Virus record (IMG/VR): IMGVR_UViG_3300045988_131209
Reading direction: 5' to 3' (one strand)
DNA: 49,086 nucleotides
From: a virus
This document shows, piece after piece, positions 11,718-49,086 of this stretch (the stretch's first letter is position 1; each line of letters opens with the position of its first letter). The notes below the pieces were generated by a model. The model was not told the DNA's origin and did no database searches. It worked only from the letters and a program-made list of their open reading frames with translations. The position numbers and the translations under genes are program-made.

Positions 11718-11741
11718 GGATAATTGATTTTAATATGTTTG

Positions 11742-11809
11742 TGGACGCCGGGGAATCGAACCCCGCCCTTTCCCTTTTGAAGAATGCTCTACCGTTGAGC
11801 TATGCGCCC
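11742..11809 (-). tRNA. tRNA-like RNA #2 (68 nt; canonical D and T arms, truncated anticodon loop)
   Basis: GGGCGC-A-TA-GCTC-AACGGTA-GAGC-A-TTCTT-CAAAA-GGGAA-AGGG-CGGGG-TTCGATT-CCCCG-GCGTCC-A; G3:U70, A73. Confidence 0.55.
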
Positions 11810-12073
11810 GTGCCGGTCTTCCCCGGCTGCCAGTATCAAAAACAAATAATAGCCTGCCTGCCTCCCGGCGGTAATATTTTAAATCTCATCCTACCGTGCT
11901 CCTGCCTACCGGACCATTGCAAACGTCAAGGTCTACCACTTTCAAGGGTTTGCGGTTGCCGGTCTGAGGCGCGGGTTACACCTTGGATGATATCTTTATC
12001 TATCGACCAAATACCTCTTTAAATTTTTTATCCAAGGCATTAAGTATTCTAATTCTTGTTGCCGGATCACAAC

Positions 12074-14244: not shown

Positions 14245-14538
14245 TCAATCACCGTTATATCTGTTGTTTGCATAATAGTTTGTCAGCGTGTTTGCCATGA
14301 AAGCCATTGAACAAGTGCTGATGTTGCGTTTTGCATCCCGGTTTTCGCACTGCTTTTTGTTCATGTTGAAAAGCTGGTACATGCTCATTGCCTTGTTATA
14401 AGAAGTACGTTCCTCTTTCCATGCTTCTTTCATGCACTCCGCAAATGTCAACACGTGATTGCGGTACTTCTTGCCAGCTTTGAACATGTTCCAAGCTGTT
14501 TTCATGATTCTGCTTTTGTTGTACTTCGGTGCTTTCAT
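14245..14538 (-). CDS. Hypothetical protein, first gene of the leftward early operon
   Basis: 97-aa ORF divergent from the repressor gene. Confidence 0.5.
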   Translation of the reverse strand: MKAPKYNKSRIMKTAWNMFKAGKKYRNHVLTFAECMKEAWKEERTSYNKAMSMYQLFNMNKKQCENRDAKRNISTCSMAFMANTLTNYYANNRYNGD

Positions 14539-14708
14539 TTCTGTTTTTATTTTTTATATTTGCAAATCGCCGTTTTCTTTTTCGTTTGCAAAACGGATTT
14601 GCTTTTGATTACAGTGCAAATATAATATCCATATTTGGATATTTGCTATTTTTAATTGTTAAAAATAGCAATATATGGCTATTTAGAATCAGTCTAAATA
14701 ATATCAAC
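14539..14708. promoter_or_regulatory. Lysis-lysogeny switch region with palindromic operators and two TATATTTG -7 boxes
   Basis: -7 boxes at 14555-14562 (+) and 14617-14624 (-). Palindromes ATTTGCAAAT 14558-14567, TTTGCAAA 14585-14592, ATATCCA-N4-TGGATAT 14625-14642, and a 13-bp perfect IR TTGCTATTTTTAA-TTG-TTAAAAATAGCAA 14643-14671. Confidence 0.6.
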
Positions 14709-15164
14709 ATGGAAAATATTGTAAAACAGAGAATTAAAGAAGCAATTGAATTTAGAAAAACCAGTATTAACGCTATAAGTAAGGTGATAGGGGTGAAGCA
14801 AAATACCCTGTCAAGGCAAATTAATACAGATAATCCAATGCCGCTTAGCAATGTATTGCTATTGATTGATGCGTTAGAAATTGATCCGTCGTGGCTTCTT
14901 ACCGGCAAAGGCGAAATGACCAAGCAGCCCACGGACCAAGAGACACCAGTCAGTACCAATAACTCGGACATGAAATCTGCTTTTTTGAAAAAGGAAGCCT
15001 TTTATTTAAGGCAGATGAACGAACGGTTGGACGACCTCATTAAGGCTAACGAAACAATCGAAAATTTAAAGGAAGAGGTAGAATCTCTCAAAAAACAGCT
15101 GGAGTTGGCAGAACAAGATTCAAATAAAATGGCTGTAAATGTCGTAAAACATAAGTTCGCTTGA
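14709..15164 (+). CDS. cI-like repressor (XRE-family HTH + C-terminal coiled coil)
   Basis: ATG at 14709; IKEAIEFRKTSINAISKVIGVKQNTLSRQ HTH; divergent from the early operon. Confidence 0.75.
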   Translation: MENIVKQRIKEAIEFRKTSINAISKVIGVKQNTLSRQINTDNPMPLSNVLLLIDALEIDPSWLLTGKGEMTKQPTDQETPVSTNNSDMKSAFLKKEAFYLRQMNERLDDLIKANETIENLKEEVESLKKQLELAEQDSNKMAVNVVKHKFA

Positions 15165-15748: not shown

Positions 15749-15804
15749 AGGTTTTATACTGATTTGTAACATACAATATCATAGCCGATTAGGATGTTTT
15801 GGAA

Positions 15805-15852
15805 ATTAGATTCCGGTTCTGAAGGTCGTGGGTTTGAATCCCACCCTGGTCA
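15805..15852 (+). other. attP core: 3' part (anticodon arm to discriminator) of a tRNA-Arg(CCG)
   Basis: TTAGA-TTCCGGT-TCTGA anticodon arm (anticodon CCG), AGGTC variable loop, GTGGG-TTTGAAT-CCCAC T arm, CCTGGTC-A acceptor; no matching 5' acceptor strand upstream. Confidence 0.7.
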
Positions 15853-15882
15853 CAGGTTTAAAAATCAATGTTTTAGACATTT

Positions 15883-16006: not shown

Positions 16007-17233
16007 ATGGCAACATTTAAAGCAGAAGTGCAGAAGCAACGGAAAGATGGGACTTTTAATATAAAGATACTTGTCACTCATAACAGGCAGCTAAAGAGAT
16101 TGCCGACCGGCATTTACATAACCAAGGATGATATGACACGATCCGGCAAAATCAAAAACCAAAAAATACTGGATCAGATAGATGATTTAATAATGCGTTA
16201 CAGGAAGAAGACTAATGAGCTATCTGTTGCAATAAACAACATGTCTATCGATAAGCTGGCAAGATATCTATGCGAACCGGAGGTTGTCTCTATTGACTTC
16301 TTGGAAGTGTTCCGGGATTACATAGACGAAAATCCGGATAAGAAAGGGGTGAGGAATTACAAATCAGCTCTAAATTCCCTCGTCAAATTCCTTGGAAGAA
16401 ACAGTCTGGATATTTCAGAGATAACAGTTCCTTTCTTGGAAAAATATGCTGCTTCTCTTGGAAAAGGTCGTGCGGTGTCCTTGTATCTTGGCAGCATGAG
16501 GCATGTTTATTCTTATGCGAAGCAAAAATACAATGACGAAGACGCAAAAAGAATATTGATCCCTTATTCGCCATTTTCACGGTATAAAGTACCCCGTCAG
16601 AATGTAGCGGAAAAGAAGGCTATAAGTGCGGAGCTTATCCGAAAGATAATAGAACTTCCGTACGATGCCACTTCGCGCGGGAAAGATAAAGAGAATCGTT
16701 ATAATTTGGCAAAGGATTGCTTTATCCTGTCATTTAGCCTTATAGGCACTAACTCTGTTGATTTATATAATGCGGAGATTTACGAGAACGACGAAATTGT
16801 ATATTGCCGGACTAAAACGAAGGATCGCCGAAGCGATAAGGCAAGAATCCAAATAAAGGTGCACCCCCATATATTACCTATATTTAAAAAATACATGGAT
16901 AAAACAGGGAAAAGGGTTTTTCGCTTTTATCAGATGTATGCAGATCAATCGACATTTAATGCAGCTTTGAACAAAGGGTTGAAGGCTGTAGGGAAAAAGG
17001 TTGGCATTCCCGGCCTTAAATTTTATGCAGCCCGGCATTCCTGGGCCACAATAGCCAGGAACGACTTAAAGACGGACAAATCAACCATAGATGAGGCCCT
17101 GAATCATATAGATAAAAGATTGTCTGTTACAGACTTGTATATAAAAAAGGATTTTTCGATTATCAACGAGGTTAATAAATCGGTCTTGGACTATGTATTC
17201 AAATCCCGTAAACCTCGTAAATCCAAACAGTAA
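16007..17233 (+). CDS. int: Tyrosine integrase with N-terminal arm-DNA-binding domain
   Basis: ATG at 16007 (the track ORF's 5' extension covers the tRNA fragment); AARHSWAT, LNH and LYIKK catalytic-region motifs; N-terminus MATFKAEVQKQRKDGTFNIKILV arm-binding type. Confidence 0.85.
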   Translation: MATFKAEVQKQRKDGTFNIKILVTHNRQLKRLPTGIYITKDDMTRSGKIKNQKILDQIDDLIMRYRKKTNELSVAINNMSIDKLARYLCEPEVVSIDFLEVFRDYIDENPDKKGVRNYKSALNSLVKFLGRNSLDISEITVPFLEKYAASLGKGRAVSLYLGSMRHVYSYAKQKYNDEDAKRILIPYSPFSRYKVPRQNVAEKKAISAELIRKIIELPYDATSRGKDKENRYNLAKDCFILSFSLIGTNSVDLYNAEIYENDEIVYCRTKTKDRRSDKARIQIKVHPHILPIFKKYMDKTGKRVFRFYQMYADQSTFNAALNKGLKAVGKKVGIPGLKFYAARHSWATIARNDLKTDKSTIDEALNHIDKRLSVTDLYIKKDFSIINEVNKSVLDYVFKSRKPRKSKQ

Positions 17234-17376
17234 TGTGATTTTTGGCGGTCTCAAAAATGTTTATTGAGGTATTGTTTGATTCGTGATATTTTTATTTCTT
17301 TGTTCATCTGTAATCAATGGGAGGATTAAAATTTATAGTTTGGATATTGTTAAACTTATATAAATAATAAAAGTTC

Positions 17377-17817
17377 ATGTCTCTAATAGTATTAGTCGCG
17401 GTTTTTGCAATCCTGTTTTTTTCAGCCAAGGTATTGCTGTATTTAATCATTCATGATAATTCCAAGCGAAAACATAAGGCTGGATATTACAATCCATACA
17501 AGACAGTGGACGGTTACGAAAACCTTGAATTAAAAGGCATATATTACAGGAAACTGTCCAATCGCGATATGGGACTGTTTTATGGGTATGCCATGGCAGA
17601 ATCAGATAATCAATATGACAAATATGCGGTTTCTGTTTATAATGAAAGGGGTGTTCTTGTGGGATATGCTCCTGGTGGTAATTATTCGCTCCATGAATAT
17701 ATCTTGAAACATGGTGGAAGTGTGAGGGCTTTTGGTGCAATATGGAAAGATGAAGATGATGAAGATGAAGATGGCGAAGGGCGATTTAGAGGCCGCGTGA
17801 ACATACAATTTGATTAA
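17377..17817 (+). CDS. Membrane-anchored HIRAN-domain protein with acidic tail
   Basis: N-terminal TM LIVLVAVFAILFFSAKVLLYLII; HIRAN motifs LKGIYYR and AESDNQYDKYAVSVYNERGVLVGYAP; DEDDEDEDGEG tail. Confidence 0.65.
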   Translation: MSLIVLVAVFAILFFSAKVLLYLIIHDNSKRKHKAGYYNPYKTVDGYENLELKGIYYRKLSNRDMGLFYGYAMAESDNQYDKYAVSVYNERGVLVGYAPGGNYSLHEYILKHGGSVRAFGAIWKDEDDEDEDGEGRFRGRVNIQFD

Positions 17818-17854
17818 TCGTTATAGATAAAGGTAATTAAAATAATAATCAAAT

Positions 17855-18313
17855 ATGAAACGTATCAAGATTTTTACTATGCTATTAGTGTTAGTAGGTG
17901 CATGTGGGTGTTCTGCAATTAAATATCCATATATCCAAGATGCAGGGATGATCGACTATTCAAAGTATGCCGAAAAGGGATTTTTCATTACAGAATCTAA
18001 CTCTGTTAGTTTTGAATATATTCCTATCGGAAGCGTATCGGCCCGCTCCGTGAGTGGTTATGAGGCGGTTGGCATAAAAACTGGTAAAGAGTTATTAGGC
18101 GATGATATTTACCCTGTAAATCGCGACGAGAAAGCGAAAATAAAATATGGTAAGTTTATCGAAGGCACACCAGAAAGGGCGATAGAAGAGCTATATAAAA
18201 AGGCTGTAAAATGGAAGGCGAACGGAATCATCGGATTAACAATAACGCCGATAACAACCACTAATCCCGTATCAGAAGGTTTTTTTGTTACAGGCATGGC
18301 GATAAGAAAATGA
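17855..18313 (+). CDS. Lipoprotein with YbjQ/UPF0145-like C-terminal domain
   Basis: Signal peptide + lipobox LVGAC|G; C-terminus ANGIIGLTITPIT...GFFVTGMAIRK resembles UPF0145. Confidence 0.55.
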   Translation: MKRIKIFTMLLVLVGACGCSAIKYPYIQDAGMIDYSKYAEKGFFITESNSVSFEYIPIGSVSARSVSGYEAVGIKTGKELLGDDIYPVNRDEKAKIKYGKFIEGTPERAIEELYKKAVKWKANGIIGLTITPITTTNPVSEGFFVTGMAIRK

Positions 18314-18489
18314 TCATGAAAGCGTATTTTGTTATAGCGATGCTCTTTGAGCTGTTTTTGGTGTTGTACACGGGGGAGATGGTAGATAGAGGGCTTATCG
18401 GAACCGCGGTTACTACCGGATTATGCGCTATAATATTGGCGATAATTTGTGAGGCGTATATTGTGGTATGGGGACTCAAAAAGAAGTAG
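18310..18489 (+). CDS. Small two-TM membrane protein (59 aa, below track cutoff)
   Basis: ATGA overlap with the lipoprotein stop; MIMKAYFVIAMLFELFLVLY...GLCAIILAIICEAYIVVWGLKKK. Confidence 0.45.
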   Translation: MIMKAYFVIAMLFELFLVLYTGEMVDRGLIGTAVTTGLCAIILAIICEAYIVVWGLKKK

Positions 18490-18644
18490 GGGGATTATCA
18501 CCGGTACTATCACCGATATATACCCCTTTGATAAAAAATGCCCGAGCATCACTGCCCAGGCATTTTAAAAAAAATAAAAAAGTACATGAAATACATGCAC
18601 TTGGCAAATATATAAATTTATTTCGTAATTTAATATCACGAAGG

Positions 18645-18830
18645 TCATTCTTTTATGACAAGCTCTATATTGAGATATTCCAATATAGACTCAATCTTAT
18701 TTTGTCCCAGGTTCATTTTCCCGTTAAGGAATAGGGACATCGCGCTTTCCGAAAGCCCAATGTGCTCCGCAAGGTCTTTGCTTTTTACCTTGCGGAGCTT
18801 CATAGCCTCTTTTACAATATCTCTTATCAT
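18645..18830 (-). CDS. Small XRE-family HTH protein (Aca-like / antitoxin-like), cassette 1
   Basis: 61 aa, KSKDLAEHIGLSESAMSLFLNGK HTH. Confidence 0.7.
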   Translation of the reverse strand: MIRDIVKEAMKLRKVKSKDLAEHIGLSESAMSLFLNGKMNLGQNKIESILEYLNIELVIKE

Positions 18831-18832
18831 GA

Positions 18833-19117
18833 TTAAAAAACAACAATTTGGAGTTTGTAGCCGTTATTATCTGAAAATTGGTATACTTCGCAATTTTCAT
18901 TGCAATATTCGGACTCTTTTATGTCATCGCAAGCATCGACAAGCCCATCAAATGATGAGCCTTCTAATTCGGAGATAAAGTTGTTGATAATGTCATCATC
19001 TTGATTCTGCATAATATCAAGCCCGGAACCACCGTTGCCCAATGTTGCCAATACCAAAGAGTTGTTGCTTGACAATTCACTCTTTACAAATTCTATAACT
19101 TCCTTTTTTGTTCTCAT
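18833..19117 (-). CDS. Strongly acidic 94-aa protein (18 D/E vs 6 K/R), cassette 1
   Basis: Counted from the translation; no recognised domain; 2 nt upstream of the HTH gene. Confidence 0.55.
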   Translation of the reverse strand: MRTKKEVIEFVKSELSSNNSLVLATLGNGGSGLDIMQNQDDDIINNFISELEGSSFDGLVDACDDIKESEYCNENCEVYQFSDNNGYKLQIVVF

Positions 19118-19146
19118 GACTATTTATTTTTAATTGTTATTACTTG

Positions 19147-19170
19147 TTTTTGATTACACTACAAAGATAC
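19147..19170 (-). promoter_or_regulatory. Promoter copy 1: 24-bp identical block containing -7 box TATCTTTG
   Basis: TTTTTGATTACACTACAAAGATAC identical to 20071-20094. Upstream (minus sense) 2 x TTTAAGTAATACCAAA at 19177-19192 and 19210-19225. Confidence 0.55.
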
Positions 19171-19277
19171 GAAAAGTTTAAGTAATACCAAACTTTTAAA
19201 GGTGAAAAATTTAAGTAATACCAAATATTTAACATTTAGATGGTAATTCAATGTGTTAATTTCCGCCTATATCACCA

Positions 19278-19493
19278 TCAGACTAAATCGACTTTTTTTC
19301 CGAGTACGTTTGCTATGCTTTCAAGCAGGTCAAGCCGGACGGCGAATTTGCCCGCTTCGATCCGGTAAATAGTGCTTTGGGCTATGCCACAACGCGCCGC
19401 GAGATCGCGTTGTGATAAACCCGCTTGTTTTCTTAAATCTTCAATCCTTCGACCGATGCGTATTCGGTCGTTTAACTCGTAATTATCTTCCAT
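19278..19493 (-). CDS. Small XRE-family HTH protein (Aca-like), cassette 2
   Basis: 71 aa, LRKQAGLSQRDLAARCGIAQSTIYRIEAGK. Confidence 0.75.
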   Translation of the reverse strand: MEDNYELNDRIRIGRRIEDLRKQAGLSQRDLAARCGIAQSTIYRIEAGKFAVRLDLLESIANVLGKKVDLV

Positions 19494-19497
19494 ATTT

Positions 19498-20028
19498 TTA
19501 TTTATTAATTAGTTTTTCCACTGCTTTTACATAAGGAGCTGTTTTTTGTCTCTCCATGTAAGCTACATACTGTTTTGCTATATGTTCTTCCAGTCTATTG
19601 GCTTCTTGATCGGCTTCGGGGGATATTTTTCTTAATTCGGGGATATTGTATGTCATTCCGTCAATAACATACTCAAAACCGTTTAACAGGGCTGTCCATC
19701 CGTTTACCTCAAACTTAAAATCGCTGATTTTGCCCGTGTGAACAAGTTCAACAGCTTCTTCTAATGTCGGTACTGTTTCTTCTTTTTTTTCTTCTTCTTC
19801 CTGTTTTTCAGGTTCGTTCTCAACAAACTCAAAGACAACAGCTGCATTAAATTTTGATTGTCTTCTACCCGAATAGCATACGGAAGTAAAATTAGAATAA
19901 AACTCGTCAAATTCAGCCTGAGAATCGAAGTCTTTAGACCATGTTTTTGTAGACGGATCGTAAACGAATCCTTGGTTCTTCAGGCTTTCTTTTGCATTGA
20001 ATGTGTTTTTAACTGCTATTGCTTTCAT
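19498..20028 (-). CDS. Acidic 176-aa protein with poly-E linker, cassette 2
   Basis: ENEPEKQEEEEKKEETVPTLEE linker between two small domains; no recognised family. Confidence 0.55.
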   Translation of the reverse strand: MKAIAVKNTFNAKESLKNQGFVYDPSTKTWSKDFDSQAEFDEFYSNFTSVCYSGRRQSKFNAAVVFEFVENEPEKQEEEEKKEETVPTLEEAVELVHTGKISDFKFEVNGWTALLNGFEYVIDGMTYNIPELRKISPEADQEANRLEEHIAKQYVAYMERQKTAPYVKAVEKLINK

Positions 20029-20070
20029 TTTCTTACGCCGCTTATAGGTTGCCGCCCTGTTCTAATTGTT

Positions 20071-20094
20071 TTTTTGATTACACTACAAAGATAC
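20071..20094 (-). promoter_or_regulatory. Promoter copy 2 (same 24-bp block, -7 TATCTTTG) with adjacent 12-bp palindrome
   Basis: Identical to 19147-19170; TGCAAATTTGCA perfect palindrome at 20111-20122; AAATATTTAACA shared at 19223 and 20147. Confidence 0.55.
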
Positions 20095-20332
20095 AACTTT
20101 TTTATTTGAATGCAAATTTGCAGTCAAATATTTTTCGAGAAACGTAAATATTTAACACTGTTTAAATGTTTGGCGTTGCGGGGTATCCCGATTTGTAGCC
20201 CTAAGACGACAAAGGTATTTTTTCAAACAAAATGATAAGTAATGATAGGATATGATATAAAATGAAATGTTCAAAATGTATAATTAACTGTATTTTAGCA
20301 ATAAGTAATTTGTTATTTAGACTAATTCTAAA

Positions 20333-20340
20333 TAACTTTG
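20333..20340 (+). promoter_or_regulatory. -7 box TAACTTTG, candidate promoter of the rightward late operon
   Basis: Exact TAnnTTTG in the 400-bp divergent intergenic region. Confidence 0.4.
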
Positions 20341-20430
20341 TGTCAGTTTCATGGCTGCGGTATTTGTTGTTTTGATAATTTAACTATAGTTAAACGCGGA
20401 CACGAAACAAATTGTAGGATAGCGATTTAA

Positions 20431-20826
20431 TTGATTTTGCCGGACAAGAAAATGAAAAAAACGGATATATTTTCGATCAGGGTAGACTCTAACGACAGGT
20501 TAAGGATGGAAGAGTTAGCAAAGGTTTCCGGCGTGCCTGTTTCGTCCATAGTCAAGTTTGGCATATCACGGCTGCTGTCAGAAGTATATGACACCGACGG
20601 TAACCTGTTATCCCCGCTATCCGTCGGTGCAGCACGCAGGATTGACGCTAAAGATGGTTACTTTGAAATCGGCGTCATCTGTAAGACATTAGGCATTAGC
20701 AGGGATGCCATGCGAAAAATGGTTGTGCGTCGTGCTGTGCCATCTATCAGGTTGGGCAAAAAACTATATGTATCGTATAAAATAATTGAGTTATATGGCA
20801 AGGACAAACATGACGCGAGAGGGTGA
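20431..20826 (+). CDS. DNA-binding protein (RHH-like N-terminus + HTH_17-like C-terminus), first late-operon gene
   Basis: IFSIRVDSNDRLRMEELAKVSGVPVSSIVKFGISRLL and ICKTLGISRDAMRKMVVRRAVPSIRLGKKLYV; start may be the ATG at 20452. Confidence 0.5.
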   Translation: MILPDKKMKKTDIFSIRVDSNDRLRMEELAKVSGVPVSSIVKFGISRLLSEVYDTDGNLLSPLSVGAARRIDAKDGYFEIGVICKTLGISRDAMRKMVVRRAVPSIRLGKKLYVSYKIIELYGKDKHDARG

Positions 20827-21118
20827 TTGCGGTGTCCGGACAAAAGAGCTGATTGCGAGATATTACCTTACCCTTATGGGTGAGTTTAGGACGGGCAGCG
20901 GTATGTTATACCTGTCAATGGACAGCGCAGATATGTTTCACAATGCTATTACGCTGATATTGCAGGATAACGGTTTTAAAAAGCTGGTGACGGACGAAGA
21001 CATAATGAAGAAGATCAGGGCGAGGATAAGAGCTGTGATAAGCGAGATAAAACAAGATCATCACACTTTAAAACTGGAAGAGTATGCCGACAATTTACAA
21101 GCCAAAGAAGAAGAGTGA
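20786..21118 (+). CDS. Hypothetical protein
   Basis: 110-aa ORF, start uncertain. Confidence 0.45.
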   Translation: MSYMARTNMTREGDCGVRTKELIARYYLTLMGEFRTGSGMLYLSMDSADMFHNAITLILQDNGFKKLVTDEDIMKKIRARIRAVISEIKQDHHTLKLEEYADNLQAKEEE

Positions 21119-21392
21119 TAACAGCTACACCAGGAAAGAAAGGATGGCGGTGTATAATACTGCCAGGTGGAAGAGGTTAAGACTTGTCAAGCTAAGGGAC
21201 AATCCCCTGTGTGAGGTGTGCGAAAAGAAAGGGATAACAAAGATGGCTGATGACGTACACCATATCCAATCGTTTATGTCTGTGGATAATCCCGAAGCAA
21301 GAAAGGCGTTGGCCTTTGACTATGATAATTTGATGAGCTTGTGTGACGAATGCCATTCTGAGATACACAAAAGAAAGCGTTCGAGAGGTTAA
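21084..21392 (+). CDS. HNH endonuclease (packaging-associated)
   Basis: CEVCEKKG...VHHI...LMSLCDECHSEIH. Confidence 0.85.
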   Translation: MPTIYKPKKKSDNSYTRKERMAVYNTARWKRLRLVKLRDNPLCEVCEKKGITKMADDVHHIQSFMSVDNPEARKALAFDYDNLMSLCDECHSEIHKRKRSRG

Positions 21393-21533
21393 TAGGTGGA
21401 AGTTAGAGGGTTAACAGGGATACCCCCCCCCCGGCATTTTTTTAGGGCAAAGGATGCCTAAAACCACCACCGACTGAACTTCACACGCACGGCATTTTTT
21501 GAAAAAAGCCAAACATTTTAAATTTGTTAAATC
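21393..21533 (+). promoter_or_regulatory. Candidate cos/terminase-recognition region
   Basis: Between HNH and terS; C10 run 21423-21432; CGGCATTTTTT repeated at 21432-21442 and 21490-21500; small hairpins. Confidence 0.35.
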
Positions 21534-21938
21534 ATGGGCAAGTATTGTATCGTGGGCGGTAAGGCGACAATCTCCTTCCAGCTCCCCAAAACAATCAAGT
21601 ATAAGGAGACGCGCAGGGTCATTTGCAGCATTATCCGTGACCTTAGTGACAATGGCGGGTTGACTGTTGGCGATATCCCCCAATTACACCGTATGGCGAC
21701 GGCGTATGATAGCTACCTTAATTGCGTGGAGGTCATATCAGAAAAGGGAATGACAATGACCAATCTTAAAGGCGAGGTGGTGAAACGTCCGGAGGTGAAC
21801 ATCTTGAAAGAAAGTTGGTCGCAATATCTTGACATTGCAAAAGAGTACGGGTTTACGCCAAGGAGTCGGAAAATGACAAAAGGAATTGTTGAGAGCAAGG
21901 AGGAAACGGATGCGGATGATTTCTTCAACGGGAAATAA
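21534..21938 (+). CDS. terS: Terminase small subunit, P27 family
   Basis: 134 aa; ...EKGMTMTNLKGEVVKRPEVNILKESWSQYLDIAKEYGFTPRSRKM typical P27-family C-terminus. Confidence 0.8.
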   Translation: MGKYCIVGGKATISFQLPKTIKYKETRRVICSIIRDLSDNGGLTVGDIPQLHRMATAYDSYLNCVEVISEKGMTMTNLKGEVVKRPEVNILKESWSQYLDIAKEYGFTPRSRKMTKGIVESKEETDADDFFNGK

Positions 21939-23550
21939 GCCATATCTACAATACCCTGCCGATGTGCTGTCCGGCAAGGTGGTAGCCGGTGAACATATCC
22001 GCTTGGCTTGTGAGCGGTTCTTTTATTTGATGGAAGATGATCGCTATGAATTTAGGCCGGAATGCGTGGACAATGTGATAAGGCTATTTCACCATCTGAA
22101 GCATTTCAAAGGCCGGCATTCTGGCAGCCCGTTTATACTGGAACCGTGGCAAGCGTGGATCGTTGCCAGTATTTACGGCTTTTACAACCTATCCGATGGA
22201 AGCCGGCTAACGCAAACGGTCTACATAGAGGTAGCTCGAAAGAACGGAAAAACCGCACTTGCTGCCGGGATTGGATTAAACGCCTTGTTTAATGATGGGG
22301 AAGATGGCGCAGAGGTTTATTTTGCTGCCAACTCAAAGGATCAGGTAAAGATATCAGCATGGCCGCTATGCTCCAACTTTGCAAAAACGTTTGACCCGAA
22401 AGAAAAATACCTGAAGGTTTTTCGTGACACTATTAATTTTGACAAAAAATTGTCTTGGTTAAAAGTGTTGGCGGCTGACTCGACAAAGCTCGACGGCCCT
22501 AATCCGTCAACCTTTATTTTGGACGAATATCATGCAGCCAAAACCAACAGTTTGAAAGCCGTGTTGGAGTCCGGGCAGGGAACGCGTGAAAACCCGCTTG
22601 AAATAATCATTACGACTGCCGGATTCGACAAGCTAGGCCCATGTTACGAGCTTCGCACGACGGGCACGGAGATACTTAACGGATTGAAAGAGGATGATTC
22701 TTTTTTTATTGCTATTTATTCGCTTGATAAAGATGATGATTGGAAGGACGAAAAAGTTTGGATAAAGAGCAATCCCAACATGGACGTAACGGTAAAGTCC
22801 TCATACCTGAGAAAAGAAGTCCGAAAGGCCATGAACACACCCTCGGATGAGGTGAATGTAAAAACCAAGAACTTGAACCTATGGTGCGATAGCGCAGATG
22901 TGTGGATACCGGATGATTACATACTATCATGCTCCAGCCATATCGACTTTGACACTTTTACCGATCGGGATGATTGCTATGCCGGAATAGACCTTTCGGC
23001 AACGTCTGACCTTGCCTGCGTGTCCTTTATGTTTCCAAAAGAAAAATTTTACTTTAAGACGTTGTATTATTTGCCTGAAGAAGCCCTGCTTACGAAGAAA
23101 AACAAGGAACAATATAGCGAATGGGTACGTAATGGATATTTGAAGCTGACACCCGGAAATGTCGTTGACTATGATTATATCCTGGACGACCTTTTGCGGA
23201 TGGATAAACGTTTTTACCTGACGAAGGTTGGTTATGACTCCTGGAATGCCACCCAATTTGTGATCAATGCGACAGACGAAGGGTTGGCGATGGAACCGGT
23301 TAGTCAATCTATCGGCAATTTTAACCGTCCGACAAAAGAGATGGAACGAATAATACTGTCCGGCAACGCCGTGATAGACAACAATCCTATTACCCGCTTT
23401 TGCTTTAAAAATGTCGTAATGAAGATAGACAGCAACGGCAATACCAAGCCGTCCAAGGAATATAAAGATAAGAAGATCGACGGCGTTATAGCCATGATTG
23501 AGGCATTAGGCGTGTACCTGCTTACACCACAGTACAGCAACACTATTTGA
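21910..23550 (+). CDS. terL: Terminase large subunit (Terminase_1 family)
   Basis: HFKGRHSGSPFILEPWQAWIV, Walker A-like VARKNGKTALAAG, ILDEYH; start among the ATGs 21886-21916. Confidence 0.9.
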   Translation: MRMISSTGNKPYLQYPADVLSGKVVAGEHIRLACERFFYLMEDDRYEFRPECVDNVIRLFHHLKHFKGRHSGSPFILEPWQAWIVASIYGFYNLSDGSRLTQTVYIEVARKNGKTALAAGIGLNALFNDGEDGAEVYFAANSKDQVKISAWPLCSNFAKTFDPKEKYLKVFRDTINFDKKLSWLKVLAADSTKLDGPNPSTFILDEYHAAKTNSLKAVLESGQGTRENPLEIIITTAGFDKLGPCYELRTTGTEILNGLKEDDSFFIAIYSLDKDDDWKDEKVWIKSNPNMDVTVKSSYLRKEVRKAMNTPSDEVNVKTKNLNLWCDSADVWIPDDYILSCSSHIDFDTFTDRDDCYAGIDLSATSDLACVSFMFPKEKFYFKTLYYLPEEALLTKKNKEQYSEWVRNGYLKLTPGNVVDYDYILDDLLRMDKRFYLTKVGYDSWNATQFVINATDEGLAMEPVSQSIGNFNRPTKEMERIILSGNAVIDNNPITRFCFKNVVMKIDSNGNTKPSKEYKDKKIDGVIAMIEALGVYLLTPQYSNTI

Positions 23551-23553
23551 TAT

Positions 23554-23578
23554 GTGTAATACGCACCGGCGGTATATA
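23554..23578 (+). repeat. Intercistronic 25-nt element copy 1 GTGTAATACGCACCGGCGGTATATA
   Basis: Exact copies at 24801-24825 and 33983-34007. Confidence 0.9.
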
Positions 23579-23594
23579 GTAAAATATATACCGA

Positions 23595-24794
23595 ATGAAT
23601 TTATTTGGCTTTAAAATAGATATACGGAGAAAGCAGCAGAAAGAACCGGTCGAGTCGTTGATAAACGTCCGCAGGTTCGGCGGCTCGTCCAGTAAAAGCG
23701 CAATGGCGTTAGCTGCCGTCTACCGGTGTGTCAATGTCATTAGCGAAAGTGTGGCACAACTCCCAATCGAAATATTTCGAAAAGATGCAGACGGGTACAA
23801 GTCCCTGTATGTAAATCATCCTGCATTTGACCTTATCCGCGAGTTTCCAAGTCCGGATATGACACGCTTTACCTTCCTCAAAACGCTCGTTAGCTCTGTT
23901 CTGCTACAGGGCAACGGCTATGCGTACATAGACAGGGACGATTACGGAAACGCGCTGTCTATCCAATATTTACCTGCATCATTAGTAAGTATCGTTTACA
24001 TAAATGTCGAAGGTGTCCCCCGGATGCGCTACCAAGTGACAGGCTTTAAATATCTGGTGGAACCTATCGATATGATCCACGTACTTAATTTCAGCTACGA
24101 CGGCATAATTGGTATTTCAACTCTTCGGCATGCGATGAATACGATAGGCATTTCCAGCTCGGCTGAAAGCTATGCGAAAGAGTTTTTTTCCGAAGGCGGG
24201 AATGTCAGGGGTATACTGTCATTTGATACCAAGTTAAAAGAAGAACAGAAAGACCAGATAAAGAAGACTTGGGCGGATATGGTAAGCAAGGGCGGTGTAG
24301 GTGTATTGGAATCCAATAGCCACTATCAATCGATATCCATTAACCCGTCTGAGGCTCAAATGTTGGAAACAAGGGAATACAACGTAATTGATATTTGCCG
24401 CTTTTTCGGAGTTTCTCCCGTCAAAGCCTTTGACCTTAGCAAGTCCAGCTATTCGACTGTTGAAGCCACCCAACTTGCTTTTCTAACTGACACATTAGCT
24501 CCCATGTTGGAAAATATAGAGCTGGAGTTCAAACGCAAGATATTCCGACCTTCTGAACGTGCCTATATAGAGGTTAAGTTTAATACAGACAATCTGTTAC
24601 GTGCCGATAAAGCCGCACAGGCCACATGGGTTAAGACAAAAATAGAGGGTGGCCTGTCCACTATCAACGAGGCACGTCGAGAACTGGACTTACCAAAGGT
24701 GAAGAATGGTGATTATACGCTCGTAAACAATGCGATGGTCCCGTTGGAATATGTCGTAAACAAGAAGTTTGAACCATCCAAGACAACATCATGA
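23595..24794 (+). CDS. Portal protein, HK97 family
   Basis: 399 aa; position and length after terL; AVYRCVNVISESVAQLPI, GNGYAYI motifs. Confidence 0.85.
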   Translation: MNLFGFKIDIRRKQQKEPVESLINVRRFGGSSSKSAMALAAVYRCVNVISESVAQLPIEIFRKDADGYKSLYVNHPAFDLIREFPSPDMTRFTFLKTLVSSVLLQGNGYAYIDRDDYGNALSIQYLPASLVSIVYINVEGVPRMRYQVTGFKYLVEPIDMIHVLNFSYDGIIGISTLRHAMNTIGISSSAESYAKEFFSEGGNVRGILSFDTKLKEEQKDQIKKTWADMVSKGGVGVLESNSHYQSISINPSEAQMLETREYNVIDICRFFGVSPVKAFDLSKSSYSTVEATQLAFLTDTLAPMLENIELEFKRKIFRPSERAYIEVKFNTDNLLRADKAAQATWVKTKIEGGLSTINEARRELDLPKVKNGDYTLVNNAMVPLEYVVNKKFEPSKTTS

Positions 24795-29404: not shown

Positions 29405-31859
29405 AAGCCAAGGGTTTGATAAGAATATAAATGCAAGCATGAAGCAGGTGGACAAATTTAAAAAGAAGTCTTCCGGGCTTTACTCACAAATAGCCGCTGT
29501 AAGCGGTAAGATAGATGCTCTTGGTGGCGGGGTGACTCGTTTTGCGGGTAACTTGGCAAAGATGGCCGTGGGGGCTACTGCTGCTATGGGCGTATCTACA
29601 GCCCTATCGGATGTCGTTCAAAAAAGCATGGAGTTTGAAAAATCAATGTCGTCGTTAAAGGCCCTTACAGGGGTGTCTGCTGAAGAGATGGAATACTTTC
29701 AACGGCAGGCGATAAAACTCGGTTCTACGTCGACGCAAACAGCGTCACAAGTGGTGGAGGCCTTTCAACTTATAGGATCGCAACAACCCGAACTTTTGAA
29801 AAACAAGGAGGCTTTAGCGGAAGTGACCAAACAAGCTATCATCTTGGCGGAAGCATCTGGGATGGACGTTCCGGAGGCAGCGCGCGCTCTTTCCGGCTCA
29901 ATCAATCAAATGGGAGAATCGGCTGACAAGGCGGGCGAGTATATCAACATATTGGCGGCCGCTTCACAGGCAGGTTCGGCAGATATCCCGTACCTGACAA
30001 AAGCTATTGAACGGTCGGGTGGTGCGGCAAGCTCTGTCGGGGTTAGATACAACGAGTTGGTTGCAGCTATCGAAGCCATTGCGCCAAAGGTGACGGAAGC
30101 AAGCGAGGCGGGAACCTACCTAAGAAATATATTTTTGACACTCGAAGCAAGCTCGGATCAAAAACTAAAACCGTCGGTTGTTGGGCTTACCGCCGCCTTG
30201 GAAAATTTAGCTGCAAAGAACCTTAACGCCACCCAAATGACAAAGATGTTTGGCAAAGAAAACGTAACGGCGGCACTTGCTATCGTCAACGCTAAAGATG
30301 AGTACAAAAAGTACGTAGATGCAATTACCGGAACCAATACAGCCCTTGAACAACAAAAAATCAATAATGATAATTTGGCTGGAGCTGTTAATAACGTGTC
30401 GTCCGCGTGGGAGGGTTTGATTTTAACGCTGAATAAGTCCAATGGCGCATTAAAAGACTCTGCTAACATGGCAGCAAGGCTGATCAACCAGTTTACAGAG
30501 CTTATAAAGACGGCCGAACAGAAGCAGCAGGAAATATTATCTGACTCCGTCGATAATGAAAAGAAAGGGCTTGAACGGGCTATTAAGTCGTATGAAGATT
30601 TTGGATATAGCAGGGCAGAGGCCATATCCAAAGTCATGGAGTTGCAGGAGCGCAATAATGCCGGCGGTGTCGGTTATGCGGCCCAGTTAAGAAAAGAACA
30701 GCTTACTTTGGCAGATTTGGAAGTACAGGAAAAATATTTGACAGACAAAGGAAAGGGTTACAATAGAAGAACTTATGATGAAGGTATTGAATTAGATAAT
30801 CTAAGAGAACAGATAAAGGCGCAAAAAGAAATTGTTTTTCAGGCAGAATTGAAAAACAAAGTTTATCAGGAGTCCGATAAGTACCTGAACGATGAGCTGA
30901 AAAAGGTATCCGAAATTGCGGAAAAGAATAAAGAAGCGAAAACAGGCACAGGAAATACGAGCGTTACCGACGACATGCGTAAGCAATTTAAAAAGGAGGA
31001 TTTGAAATTGAAGGCCTCTTTTGACTTTGAAAAGTCCATGAATGACGCTGGTGTATATATCCATAAGGAAATCAAAAAAATCGAGAAAGAAGCAGAAGAC
31101 GGATATGAAGTCCCTGTGCCGTTGAAGATGGTATATATGCCGGAAGTTGAGGAAGATGTCGAAACGGATTTGAAGGGCAGCATTGCCGGATACCAAAAGC
31201 AAATACAGGACTTGACGATATTGTATAACGAAGAAACGAACGAGTCGTTGAGGGCTATTTACGCGCAAAGAATTAAGGACCTTGAAAAGACGCTTGAAAA
31301 AATGACGGATGTCAATAACGGTATGGTCGAATTGTCAAGTGAAGTCCAATCACTGATCCAAAGCAGTGTAACATCCGTTTTTGAGGGGCTTGGAGATGCG
31401 TTAGCATCCGGTGATCCTTCGGAGGCTTTTAATAGCATGTTAATGAGCATGATGGACATGCTGAAACAATTCGGTTCGGCAATGGTCGCCGCCGGATTGG
31501 CTAAGATCGCGTTTGACAAATTGCTCATGAACCCCTTTGCCGCTATTGCTGCCGGTGGCGCATTGATCGTCGCTGCATCTGCTGCAAAAGCTGCACTGCA
31601 AAAATCGGTGAGCGGGAAATATGCTACCGGCGGTATCGTGCCGGGTATGAGCTATGCAGGTGACAAAGTCCCCGTTATGGCCAACTCAGGCGAAATGATA
31701 CTGAGCAGGGTACAGCAAGGCAGGTTATTTGATATACTTAATAATGGCGGTGGTGGCCGATCGTCCGATGTGCGCGTCACGGGCGAGTTGGTAGCGCGTG
31801 GGGATAATTTGGTTGCCGTAATTAGAAATAGTGAAAAACTTAACTCAAAAATGCGATGA
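29370..31859 (+). CDS. Tape measure protein
   Basis: 829 aa; TP901-type core MEFEKSMSSLKALTGVSAEEM...; coiled coils; C-terminal G-rich hydrophobic region. Confidence 0.9.
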   Translation: MPADLVTNLWLESQGFDKNINASMKQVDKFKKKSSGLYSQIAAVSGKIDALGGGVTRFAGNLAKMAVGATAAMGVSTALSDVVQKSMEFEKSMSSLKALTGVSAEEMEYFQRQAIKLGSTSTQTASQVVEAFQLIGSQQPELLKNKEALAEVTKQAIILAEASGMDVPEAARALSGSINQMGESADKAGEYINILAAASQAGSADIPYLTKAIERSGGAASSVGVRYNELVAAIEAIAPKVTEASEAGTYLRNIFLTLEASSDQKLKPSVVGLTAALENLAAKNLNATQMTKMFGKENVTAALAIVNAKDEYKKYVDAITGTNTALEQQKINNDNLAGAVNNVSSAWEGLILTLNKSNGALKDSANMAARLINQFTELIKTAEQKQQEILSDSVDNEKKGLERAIKSYEDFGYSRAEAISKVMELQERNNAGGVGYAAQLRKEQLTLADLEVQEKYLTDKGKGYNRRTYDEGIELDNLREQIKAQKEIVFQAELKNKVYQESDKYLNDELKKVSEIAEKNKEAKTGTGNTSVTDDMRKQFKKEDLKLKASFDFEKSMNDAGVYIHKEIKKIEKEAEDGYEVPVPLKMVYMPEVEEDVETDLKGSIAGYQKQIQDLTILYNEETNESLRAIYAQRIKDLEKTLEKMTDVNNGMVELSSEVQSLIQSSVTSVFEGLGDALASGDPSEAFNSMLMSMMDMLKQFGSAMVAAGLAKIAFDKLLMNPFAAIAAGGALIVAASAAKAALQKSVSGKYATGGIVPGMSYAGDKVPVMANSGEMILSRVQQGRLFDILNNGGGGRSSDVRVTGELVARGDNLVAVIRNSEKLNSKMR

Positions 31860-48967: not shown

Positions 48968-49086
48968 TAAATTTGTATTATTCGCAAAGCCCATGATAAA
49001 GGCTCATACAACTATATCCGCCTTCCGGCTCAAACATGTCTGACATCGTATCATTACGATTTACATAGTCAATGACTTCCTGCACA
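48968..49086. repeat. Terminal overlap, identical to 1-119
   Basis: Read directly. Confidence 0.95.

Follow-up and report, generated by a model that had tools for sequence, protein, structure and literature searches.

In the acr-aca operons, anti-CRISPR (acr) genes are joined to anti-CRISPR-associated (aca) regulator genes; the promoter has a single repeat or a pair, of which one lies within the core, and the Aca repressors are HTH_3-type proteins of 65-69 aa (PMC9410906). Recombination of acr and aca genes with changing partners is reported to be common (AcaFinder, PMC9765179), and some Aca proteins are also reported to control a neighbouring operon (PMC13551039). Here we describe two gene cassettes of similar appearance, arranged in tandem at positions 18645-20125 of the virus record IMGVR_UViG_3300045988_131209 (49,086 nt; the whole of this stretch is called the window below). 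In each of them an orphan cargo gene is followed by a gene for a small XRE-family helix-turn-helix (HTH) protein. Very probably, these are two tandem autorepressed accessory-gene cassettes. The fuller reading, which combines the autorepressed cassettes with counter-defence or host-takeover cargo deployed in the manner of acr-aca operons, is given a probability of about 45%. An acr-aca-like architecture had been proposed in an earlier, sequence-only reading of this DNA, and the proposal is now strongly supported by a repeat in the core promoter, the last position of the HTH gene, the co-variation of operator and HTH, and the shuffling of cargo.

Bacteroidales dominate the human gut. To our knowledge, very few anti-defence proteins have been described for phages of these bacteria, and no Aca-type regulator has been validated.

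The AcaFinder program selects candidate loci by strand, gene spacing, protein size and the presence of an Acr homologue (PMC9765179). The four cassette genes lie on one strand (minus), are separated by gaps of 4, 160 and 2 nt (limit <250 bp), and encode proteins of 176, 71, 94 and 61 aa (limits <200 aa and, for HTHs, <150 aa). No Acr homologue was found among them in Pfam, PHROGs, PADLOC, PDB (sequence and fold) or BFVD. The placement of a repeat in the core promoter, as in Aca-type operons, recurs here: the operator of cassette 2 (opA) and the proximal repeat in the operator of cassette 1 (opB) each contain the -33 TTTG of their promoter.

Layout of the cassettes and their promoters

The sequence-only reading had recognised four open reading frames (ORFs) in this region, and their location, lengths and order were all reproduced; the four are on the minus strand. 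Its identification of the 61-aa and 71-aa products as HTH proteins was borne out by Pfam, which places both in the XRE family. The genes and promoter elements, in the direction of transcription, are as follows:

20146..20157, minus strand: upstream box of cassette 2, TGTTAAATATTT (GTTAAAT box; exact repeat)
20103..20130, minus strand: operator opA, a palindrome centred on TGCAAATTTGCA, containing the -33 TTTG (20113-20116)
20071..20094, minus strand: promoter core of cassette 2, with the -7 box TATCTTTG at 20086-20093 and the start of the leader
19498..20028, minus strand: cargo 2, 176 aa, first gene of cassette 2
19278..19493, minus strand: HTH H1, 71 aa, XRE family, 4 nt after cargo 2 (HTH_3, 2.5e-16)
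19223..19234, minus strand: upstream box of cassette 1, TGTTAAATATTT (GTTAAAT box; exact repeat)
19171..19232, minus strand: operator opB, two copies of TTTGGTATTACTTAAA (19177-19192 and 19210-19225)
19147..19170, minus strand: promoter core of cassette 1, with the -7 box TATCTTTG at 19162-19169 and the start of the leader
18833..19117, minus strand: cargo 1, 94 aa, first gene of cassette 1
18645..18830, minus strand: HTH H2, 61 aa, XRE family, 2 nt after cargo 1 (HTH_26, 3.7e-8)

An identical 24-bp block had been reported ahead of both cassettes. This block, GTATCTTTGTAGTGTAATCAAAAA on the minus strand, was found exactly at 19147-19170 and 20071-20094, with the -7 box inside it, and nowhere else in the window even when 3 mismatches were allowed (0 expected in shuffles). 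Each copy starts with TATCTTTG, and a TTTG is located exactly 19 nt further upstream. The sigma-ABfr consensus of Bacteroides consists of TTTG near -33 and TAnnTTTG at -7 (PMC7366714), and both putative cassette promoters fit it in the form TTTG-N19-TATCTTTG. The upstream 12-mer described as common to the two cassettes, AAATATTTAACA, is likewise exact at 19223-19234 and 20146-20157. The term "duplicated promoter" used for these repeats did not hold, however: they are not a local duplication, but belong to a scaffold common to the whole cassette family in related phages.

The segments between the upstream boxes and the cores differ between the two cassettes. In cassette 2, the perfect palindrome TGCAAATTTGCA was recovered as reported and extends to TTGAATGCAAATTTGCAGTCAA (20106-20127); it is single in the window, with 0 expected. 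In cassette 1, the two reported repeats correspond to TTTGGTATTACTTAAA, placed 33 bp apart, and two matches to this sequence arose in only 1 of 100 shuffles; inspection of the sequence revealed a GTA-N-TAC dyad core inside each 16-mer. The -33 TTTG is the centre of the opA palindrome in cassette 2 and is held by the proximal opB repeat (19189-19192) in cassette 1. Within the window, opA and opB are each restricted to their own promoter. A dimeric HTH bound at opA or opB would, to judge from these positions, occlude RNA polymerase.

Both HTH proteins are bare domains of 61-71 aa with no toxin-binding extension, and their PHROG matches are transcriptional regulators. The nearest solved relatives of H1 are HipB, HigA, the 434 repressor and C.AhdI, and H1 also matches the PADLOC family Control_protein at 2e-9. 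H1 is thus far a predicted autorepressor binding opA, and H2 a predicted autorepressor binding opB. The Bacteroidota candidates given in Table S5 of the AcaFinder study are of the HTH_17 or HTH_23 types (PMC9765179).

Three further elements were found in and around the transcribed regions:

20032..20057, minus strand: GC-rich leader motif GGGCGGCAACCTATAAGCGGCGTAAG, with two GCGGC(A/G) 14 nt apart, in the 5' untranslated region of the 176-aa gene
19239..19279, minus strand: weak hairpin between the cassettes, without a U-tract (-11.1 kcal/mol, z = -1.4)
18570..18602, minus strand: intrinsic terminator with a 9-bp stem and a U-tract (z = -3.4; 0 of 200 shuffles fold as well)

The terminator closes the transcription unit after cassette 1, and transcription of cassette 2 may run on into cassette 1. 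In related phages, the GC-rich leader motif is found 28-31 nt ahead of the ATG in at least 9 unrelated first genes, under various promoters and with various HTH types. Its general form is GGCGGCAAC-N4-6-AA-N1-3-GCGGC(A/G), and it was also seen in loci L040, L142, L155, L156, L158 and L160-L164. An RNA structure was considered for this motif and rejected (z = +0.6); the motif may be a protein-binding or translation-control site.

Operator-regulator pairing and cargo exchange in related phages

The 24-bp block also precedes other genes in contigs carrying homologues of the cargo, and a scan of IMG/VR with its 19-nt core recovered 49 contigs. Every copy of the core in the related contigs was catalogued by script, which gave 69 occurrences representing 44 unique promoter regions. 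All 44 have a GTTAAAT box, which precedes the core by 62±2 bp (61-64 bp over the set), and a TTTG 18-21 nt (mostly 19) before the TAnnTTTG box (TATCTTTG). A variable operator segment of 40-50 bp lies between box and core, and an A-rich leader follows the core.

In this set of unique promoters, opA (the TGCAAATTTGCA palindrome) always occurs with an H1-type HTH of 71 aa, and opB (two TTTGGTATTACTTAAA) always with an H2-type HTH of 61-63 aa. Three further operators have partners of their own: opC (TGACA-N10-TGTCA) pairs with H3 (64 aa), opD (TTGTGG...CCACAA) with H4 (73 aa), and opE (GTTTGGTAGTAC, related to opB) with an H2-like HTH. A third cassette, present in the relative L001, combines an opC-type dyad with H3. 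The identity among H1, H3 and H4 is 42-55%, and that of H2 to the others 26-33%. When the HTHs were used as bait, 135 further loci were obtained, in which H2 relatives of 62-72% identity are accompanied by repeats that have diverged in a matching way (GTTTGATATTAC; GTTTGATATTACAAAAAC), and the core has diverged as well, to TATCTTTGTAACATC. No stronger sign than this co-variation is at hand that each HTH would recognise the operator of its own promoter.

An 18-nt core lacking the box was observed, with a conserved leader, CAAAGAGAGGTTACGACGGA, behind it and the first ORF only ~240 nt further on, in L013, L033, L052, L053, L067 and L075. Together with its leader, this core, which is found in phage and Bacteroidales contigs, may be a separate conserved non-coding element.

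The cargo behaves differently from the operators. At least 15 unrelated, mostly small orphan families are exchanged among the regulators (cargo shuffled, INDEPENDENTLY). The family of the 94-aa protein, F4, occurs with H2, H3 and H4, and its identity stays at 81-83% while that of the partner HTHs drops to 26-33%. F5, a 101-aa acidic protein that usually precedes F4, is absent from the window. The 137-aa family F2 is found under an HTH-less opA promoter directly after an H1 cassette, where this promoter drives a second cargo gene, a presumed case of regulation in trans such as is reported for Aca proteins (PMC13551039), and also under opE with an HTH of its own; the three-gene set F8-F9-F10 occurs under opA or opB. 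Additional cargo proteins of 57, 83, 104, 131, 183 and 205 aa are encoded beside H2-type HTHs, and some cargo genes have no adjacent HTH. The isoelectric points (pI) of F4, F5 and F10 are 4.05-4.25. Several unrelated cargo genes are present per phage, and the same cargo is carried by phages with different packaging modules and backbones.

Since the operator tracks the HTH subtype while the cargo is shuffled, predicted autorepression is supported and a toxin-antitoxin (TA) pair is disfavoured. A toxin-first type II TA pair of the HigBA kind, with an upstream toxin and an HTH antitoxin, has in its favour that toxin-first TA loci show a similar order of genes and likewise have an XRE HTH that regulates itself (PMC9410906); HipB and HigA are among the nearest solved relatives of H1, and true TA modules are located near the cassettes in relatives. 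Yet no RelE, ParE, HigB, MqsR or other toxin domain or fold was detected (Pfam, PADLOC, PDB fold), the HTHs lack an extension with which a toxin could be bound, the 94-aa cargo is strongly acidic, and the conservation of this cargo beside divergent HTHs, like the cargo without any HTH, is at odds with pairs that evolve together. The sequence-only reading had already disfavoured a toxin-first pair, and on these grounds we consider such a pair very improbable.

The 94-aa cargo was described earlier as having 18 D/E against 6 K/R and no recognisable domain. The count is exact (pI 4.05), and no Pfam, PHROG or PADLOC match was obtained. Its AlphaFold model shows a compact alpha/beta fold (mean predicted local distance difference test score, pLDDT, 91; predicted template modelling score 0.81), and has an invariant hairpin with the sequence LGNGGSG. 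Foldseek comparison of the AlphaFold models of both cargo proteins, a step suggested in the sequence-only reading, gave no PDB match with E below 0.001. For the 94-aa model, a weak similarity to TRAPP/roadblock/longin-like folds (E 0.05, template modelling score (TM) 0.4) was not meaningful. In BFVD, this model matched uncharacterised proteins of uncultured phages only (best E 3.7e-5, TM 0.76). A hint of a CdiI_2 immunity protein (E 0.097) was rejected, as 3 of 35 family members match it, among equally weak unrelated families.

The 176-aa cargo had been called acidic, with a poly-E linker. The linker is present, but the acidity of the protein is only mild (32 D/E vs 23 K/R, pI 4.9); it resides mainly in the linker, the N-terminal domain being neutral (pI 7.8). 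The model of this protein (pLDDT 75) consists of two domains joined by the linker:

aa 1-69 (nt 19822-20028), minus strand: DUF5710-like N-terminal domain, assigned via relatives
aa 70-86, minus strand: poly-E linker, disordered in the model (pLDDT below 50)
aa 87-176, minus strand: alpha/beta C-terminal domain with a long terminal helix, from the model

No match to Pfam, PHROGs, PADLOC or a named viral family, and no PDB fold match, was found for the 176-aa protein, and profile searches of both cargo families against PDB sequences returned a spurious chitinase segment only. Among 1.8 billion representative proteins searched by profile, the C-terminal domain of the 176-aa protein is narrowly and its N-terminal domain widely distributed. 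Of the 40 profile-detected relatives of the N-terminal domain, 5 match DUF5710 (PF18974) on the same segment, the best at 8e-10. The assignment of this domain to DUF5710 is transitive, and the relationship apparently divergent, because a direct comparison of the 176-aa protein with the Pfam model gives nothing at E <= 1. The DNA-mimic idea reasonably fits only the 94-aa protein, since the other cargo has an N-terminal domain that is DUF5710-like and lacks acidity.

Fusions connect the two cargoes. In P0079 (8 contigs, beside an integrase gene), the N-terminal domain of the 176-aa protein (47% identity, E 5e-22) is fused to the 94-aa fold (62%, E 8e-44), and in the 183-aa cargo the same N-terminal domain is followed by an acidic linker and another C-terminal domain. 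Because of these two fusions, the N-terminal domain is read as a common module placed on variable C-terminal modules, and the cargoes of both window cassettes appear to belong to one combinatorial repertoire. Two other forms of the 94-aa domain were seen: an in-frame fusion to an H3-type HTH in P0048 (one contig; possibly a lost stop codon), and 158-aa proteins with a 64-aa acidic C-terminal extension under opD with H4 (P0046, P0056, P0060, P0067 and P0068; L006-L010).

The company of the N-terminal domain could also suggest that the cargo takes part in phage DNA transactions or in a takeover unrelated to immunity (replication, recombination, nucleoid targeting), with the DUF5710-like part as a DNA- or replisome-binding module. 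Besides the DUF5710 matches among its relatives, the domain has SAP and SprT/WLM-type peptidase partners, and DUF5710 is fused to Rep_3 initiators of plasmids (PMC11233732). Core replication functions, however, are not normally swapped among at least 15 orphan families, nor are they normally arranged in AT-rich tandem arrays with private repressors; moreover, the 94-aa cargo has no DUF5710-like domain and the 176-aa protein of the window misses the DUF5710 model. This explanation is distinctly unlikely.

The remaining cargo families are similarly devoid of recognisable functions. Outside the enzyme operon of L019, no scanned family had a significant Pfam match, and one matched a PHROG without known function; no cargo matched a PADLOC defence family. 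In the 135 loci obtained with the HTH bait, no known anti-defence gene was situated directly under a cassette promoter. A NYN-domain protein was considered as cassette cargo and rejected, as it has its own promoter. In L019, the opA/H1 operon encodes SNF2-like, PAPS-reductase/DUF3440 and candidate ParB-like proteins (ParB_N below the Pfam cut-off), and, to judge from inspection of the sequence only, similar PAPS-reductase genes (with a ParB-like gene also in L167) appear to lie upstream of related HTHs in L157 and L167. An operon of the L019 type may represent a DNA modification system resembling IbrA/IbrB that is controlled in the same way as the cassettes.

Phage genome, neighbourhood and host

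Positions 1-119 of the window are identical to positions 48968-49086. From this exact direct overlap of 119 bp between its ends, the window is seen to be the complete genome of a temperate phage, circular or terminally redundant, of ~48,967 bp. The sequence-only reading had located the cassettes between lysogeny morons and packaging genes, and the gene order agrees: on one side lie a tRNA-Arg-like sequence, the integrase gene (16007-17233) and genes for a HIRAN protein, a 152-aa and a 59-aa protein, and beyond the two cassettes follow genes for a 131-aa protein, a 110-aa protein and an HNH endonuclease, then terS and terL. Other features of the surroundings are:

11741-11810, minus strand: tRNA-Phe call with the odd anticodon AAA, among minus-strand early genes
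14529-15164: CI-like HTH protein, 211 aa, a repressor candidate with no recognised peptidase domain
15787-15853, plus strand: tRNA-Arg(CCG)-like sequence abutting the integrase gene, barely at the Rfam threshold
17377-17817, plus strand: HIRAN-domain protein, 146 aa (Pfam 3.8e-6), just downstream of the integrase gene

An Rfam scan of the window gave the two tRNA matches and nothing else; the tRNA-Arg(CCG)-like sequence beside the integrase gene is probably the attP core. The HIRAN protein has a hydrophobic N-terminus by sequence inspection and is an unusual moron candidate. Its 152-aa neighbour matches only phrog_19292, a PHROG without known function, and the 59-aa protein that comes next is hydrophobic.

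The cassettes are on the strand opposite to their integrase-side neighbours and are transcribed opposite to the late genes. Their GC content is 36.5%, compared with 42.5% for the window, and the AT-rich region looks acquired. The packaging genes (HNH/terS) start 1-1.5 kb away, and in the relatives L002-L005 the cassettes are directly beside terS. If packaging proceeds from terS into the structural genes, the cassette region would be packaged last and would be the first to enter a new cell. Such a presumed early-entry position of the cassettes would resemble that of plasmid leading regions, which are enriched in anti-defence genes (PMC11541004). In HK97-type cos phages, an HNH protein assists cos cleavage (PMC9410871).

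The same hotspot in relatives contains TA modules (YafQ/ParE, HicAB, HigB) and Fic adjoining the cassettes. In L001 (3056-4588), genes for an LPD29 polyvalent protein, a 278-aa tyrosine recombinase and a DUF6965 protein are situated ahead of the cassette array, and arrays with similar gene sizes (475-510 aa, 278 aa, 71 aa; compared by size) were noted in L135, L146, L205 and L206. LPD29 has been proposed to be associated with anti-defence (PMC13551039).

This neighbourhood is the basis of the main rival explanation, that the cargo genes are prophage-expressed morons benefiting the lysogen by superinfection exclusion, anti-phage defence or lysogenic conversion, with the HTH setting the level of expression. 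The integrase, HIRAN and two small unannotated genes adjoining the cassettes, the transcription opposite to the late genes, the TA and Fic modules of relatives and the AT-rich, acquired-looking region would all suit it. The lack of PADLOC defence matches and of any recognised enzymatic domain in the small cargos does not. Defence systems, furthermore, usually carry their HTH regulator first or divergently. Operons with a strong promoter and the HTH gene in last place are typically of the acr-aca kind or toxin-first TA loci (PMC9410906). Taken together, these points make the moron explanation rather unlikely.

The CI-like protein brings in another possibility, in which the cassettes are induction-control modules and the cargo is an antirepressor, gated by the HTH, of this protein or of the repressor of a competing prophage. 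An orphan small protein combined with an XRE regulator in a non-essential prophage region has been described in such a role (PMC10432266), and this phage does encode a candidate CI-like repressor, in which no peptidase domain was recognised. The HTH gene, however, is co-transcribed downstream of the cargo and the operator covers the -33 element, unlike in those divergent modules with an activating transcription factor; also, cargo that is found across different backbones, with several cargos per phage, is hard to fit to specificity for a single repressor. We regard an antirepressor function as improbable. The two small HTHs were also considered as a CI/Cro switch themselves, and this was rejected in view of the longer CI-like candidate and of operators that are each present only at their own cassette.

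The phage is remote from the described ones: its terminase is at most 55% identical to any of 50,697 GenBank phage records, and neither megablast of positions 17000-24000 nor tblastn of the two cargos gave a match in that collection. Homologues of the two cargos form 38 and 39 clusters from uncultured gut phage and metagenome contigs only, with "hypothetical protein" as their sole label. The 18-nt core had 56 matches in 185,579 reference genomes, none of them with the upstream box or the cassette layout; a bare 18-nt core is a good Bacteroidota promoter or a chance match.

A tblastn search of plasmids gave one match, a 61.9-kb circular element of B. thetaiotaomicron BFG-119 (NZ_CP103284.1) that encodes an integrase. 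Read in order, its sequence has a terminator hairpin, the ATGTTAAA box, two GTTTG(A/G)TATTAC repeats and TATCTTTG, followed by genes for the 183-aa N-domain cargo, a 57-aa protein and an H2-like HTH. Because a cognate cassette is carried by this element, a Bacteroides host for the cassette family is supported. The ORF of the H2-like HTH (L254 5716-5916; NZ_CP103284.1 ~30290-30490) is missing from the gene table of the record, and the "plasmid" itself resembles an excised or episomal phage.

Proposed mechanism and comparison with known systems

The mechanism that we infer for the two cassettes would operate as follows. Each cassette would be transcribed from its sigma-ABfr promoter, the orphan cargo first and the minimal XRE HTH second. 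H1, acting on the palindrome opA, and H2, acting on the two opB repeats, would then shut their own promoters at the -33 element. Entry of the phage into a repressor-free cell would produce a burst of cargo before repression sets in, and a low steady level of cargo would be maintained in the lysogen. Among gut Bacteroidales phages, scaffold, operator/HTH pair and cargo would be exchanged independently, as parts of a recombining family. Counter-defence or host takeover is the likeliest role of the cargo. The acidic 94-aa protein might act as a stoichiometric inhibitor or mimic, and in the 176-aa protein the DUF5710-like domain might provide the targeting for the variable effector domain to which it is linked.

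Several observations weigh against counter-defence or takeover cargo of the acr-aca kind. No cargo family could be matched to anti-CRISPRs, DNA mimics, anti-restriction proteins or any further class of known anti-defence proteins (Pfam, PHROGs, PDB sequence and fold, BFVD), and not all cargo is acidic, F8, F9 and F13 having a pI above 9. The PDB chains presumably include the solved Aca proteins. No solved Aca was among the phmmer matches of the HTHs to PDB, in which only the HTH of AcrIIA15 appeared, at a non-significant E of 0.31. The integrase, moron-like and TA-module neighbourhood suits prophage-expressed defence or conversion genes equally well, and the replication initiators and DNA-associated domains that accompany DUF5710 might point to a role in DNA transactions. 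Finally, the cassette is present in none of the 185,579 reference genomes scanned, from which the defence repertoire of a host could have been read.

A bolder extension, which we regard as doubtful, is that the cassettes constitute a plug-and-play platform of Bacteroidales, in which a constant scaffold and private operator/HTH pairs serve a reservoir of counter-defence cargo, with DUF5710-like delivery of inhibitor domains that include the 94-aa fold. The scaffold (GTTAAAT box, TATCTTTG core and leader) would on this equally doubtful account provide both a strong early promoter and homology for recombination, and the inhibitors would be brought to a DNA-associated host target.

Whatever the function of the cargo, the DNA signature of the family (the box, the 62-bp spacing, the -33/-7 geometry and at least 5 operator/HTH pairs) retrieves at least 15 orphan cargo families. 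The BFG-119 cassette provides an experimental system in a cultured strain, in which promoter-repressor and defence-inhibition assays are feasible. If the cargo inhibits Bacteroides immunity, it would be of use to those who engineer phages and conjugation in the phylum; if its function is a different one, the family would still define a class of shuffled accessory modules that is so far unexplored. In addition, the orthogonal HTH/operator pairs, which share a strong promoter, would be ready-made regulatory parts for Bacteroides synthetic biology.

Among the known systems, the acr-aca operons share with these cassettes the strong promoter, the small orphan genes, an HTH_3-type last gene of 60-75 aa and one or two promoter repeats, as well as a regulator able to control a neighbouring operon and the free recombination of cargo and regulator. 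They differ in that the cargo described here has no Acr homology and the HTHs are not recognisable, in the comparison with PDB chains, as members of a described Aca family, and in the Bacteroidota sigma-ABfr promoter, whose constant box and core frame interchangeable operators. HigBA and GraTA are similar in having a small upstream gene followed by an autoregulating XRE HTH that acts on promoter operators, whereas the cassettes lack a toxin fold, a toxin-binding HTH region and co-evolution of cargo and HTH, and some of the cargo is HTH-less.

The controller (C) proteins C.AhdI and C.BclI resemble H1 in sequence (PDB matches at 5e-4 and 5e-3) and are likewise small dimeric XRE HTHs that act on promoter operators and time expression after entry. 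In contrast to the cassette order, C genes precede the nuclease gene, and their products are mainly activators and only later repressors; there is no endonuclease or methyltransferase gene at the cassette locus. The modules of a transcription factor and a small ORF (TF-smORF) described by Silpe et al. 2023 (PMC10432266) also combine an XRE-type regulator with an orphan small protein in the accessory region of temperate phages. Their transcription factor is divergent and activating, while the cassettes are co-directional operons with gaps of 2-4 nt and an operator that implies repression.

Anti-defence islands and leading regions (PMC7648647, PMC11541004) are comparable in their clusters of small accessory operons and in a position that is likely expressed early, and LPD29 is encoded nearby in L001; such islands are defined by known anti-defence genes, and none was recognised in the cassettes. 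In sum, the cassettes follow an acr-aca-like design, but their promoter scaffold is that of Bacteroidota, their operator/regulator pairs are interchangeable and their cargo is dark and shuffled.

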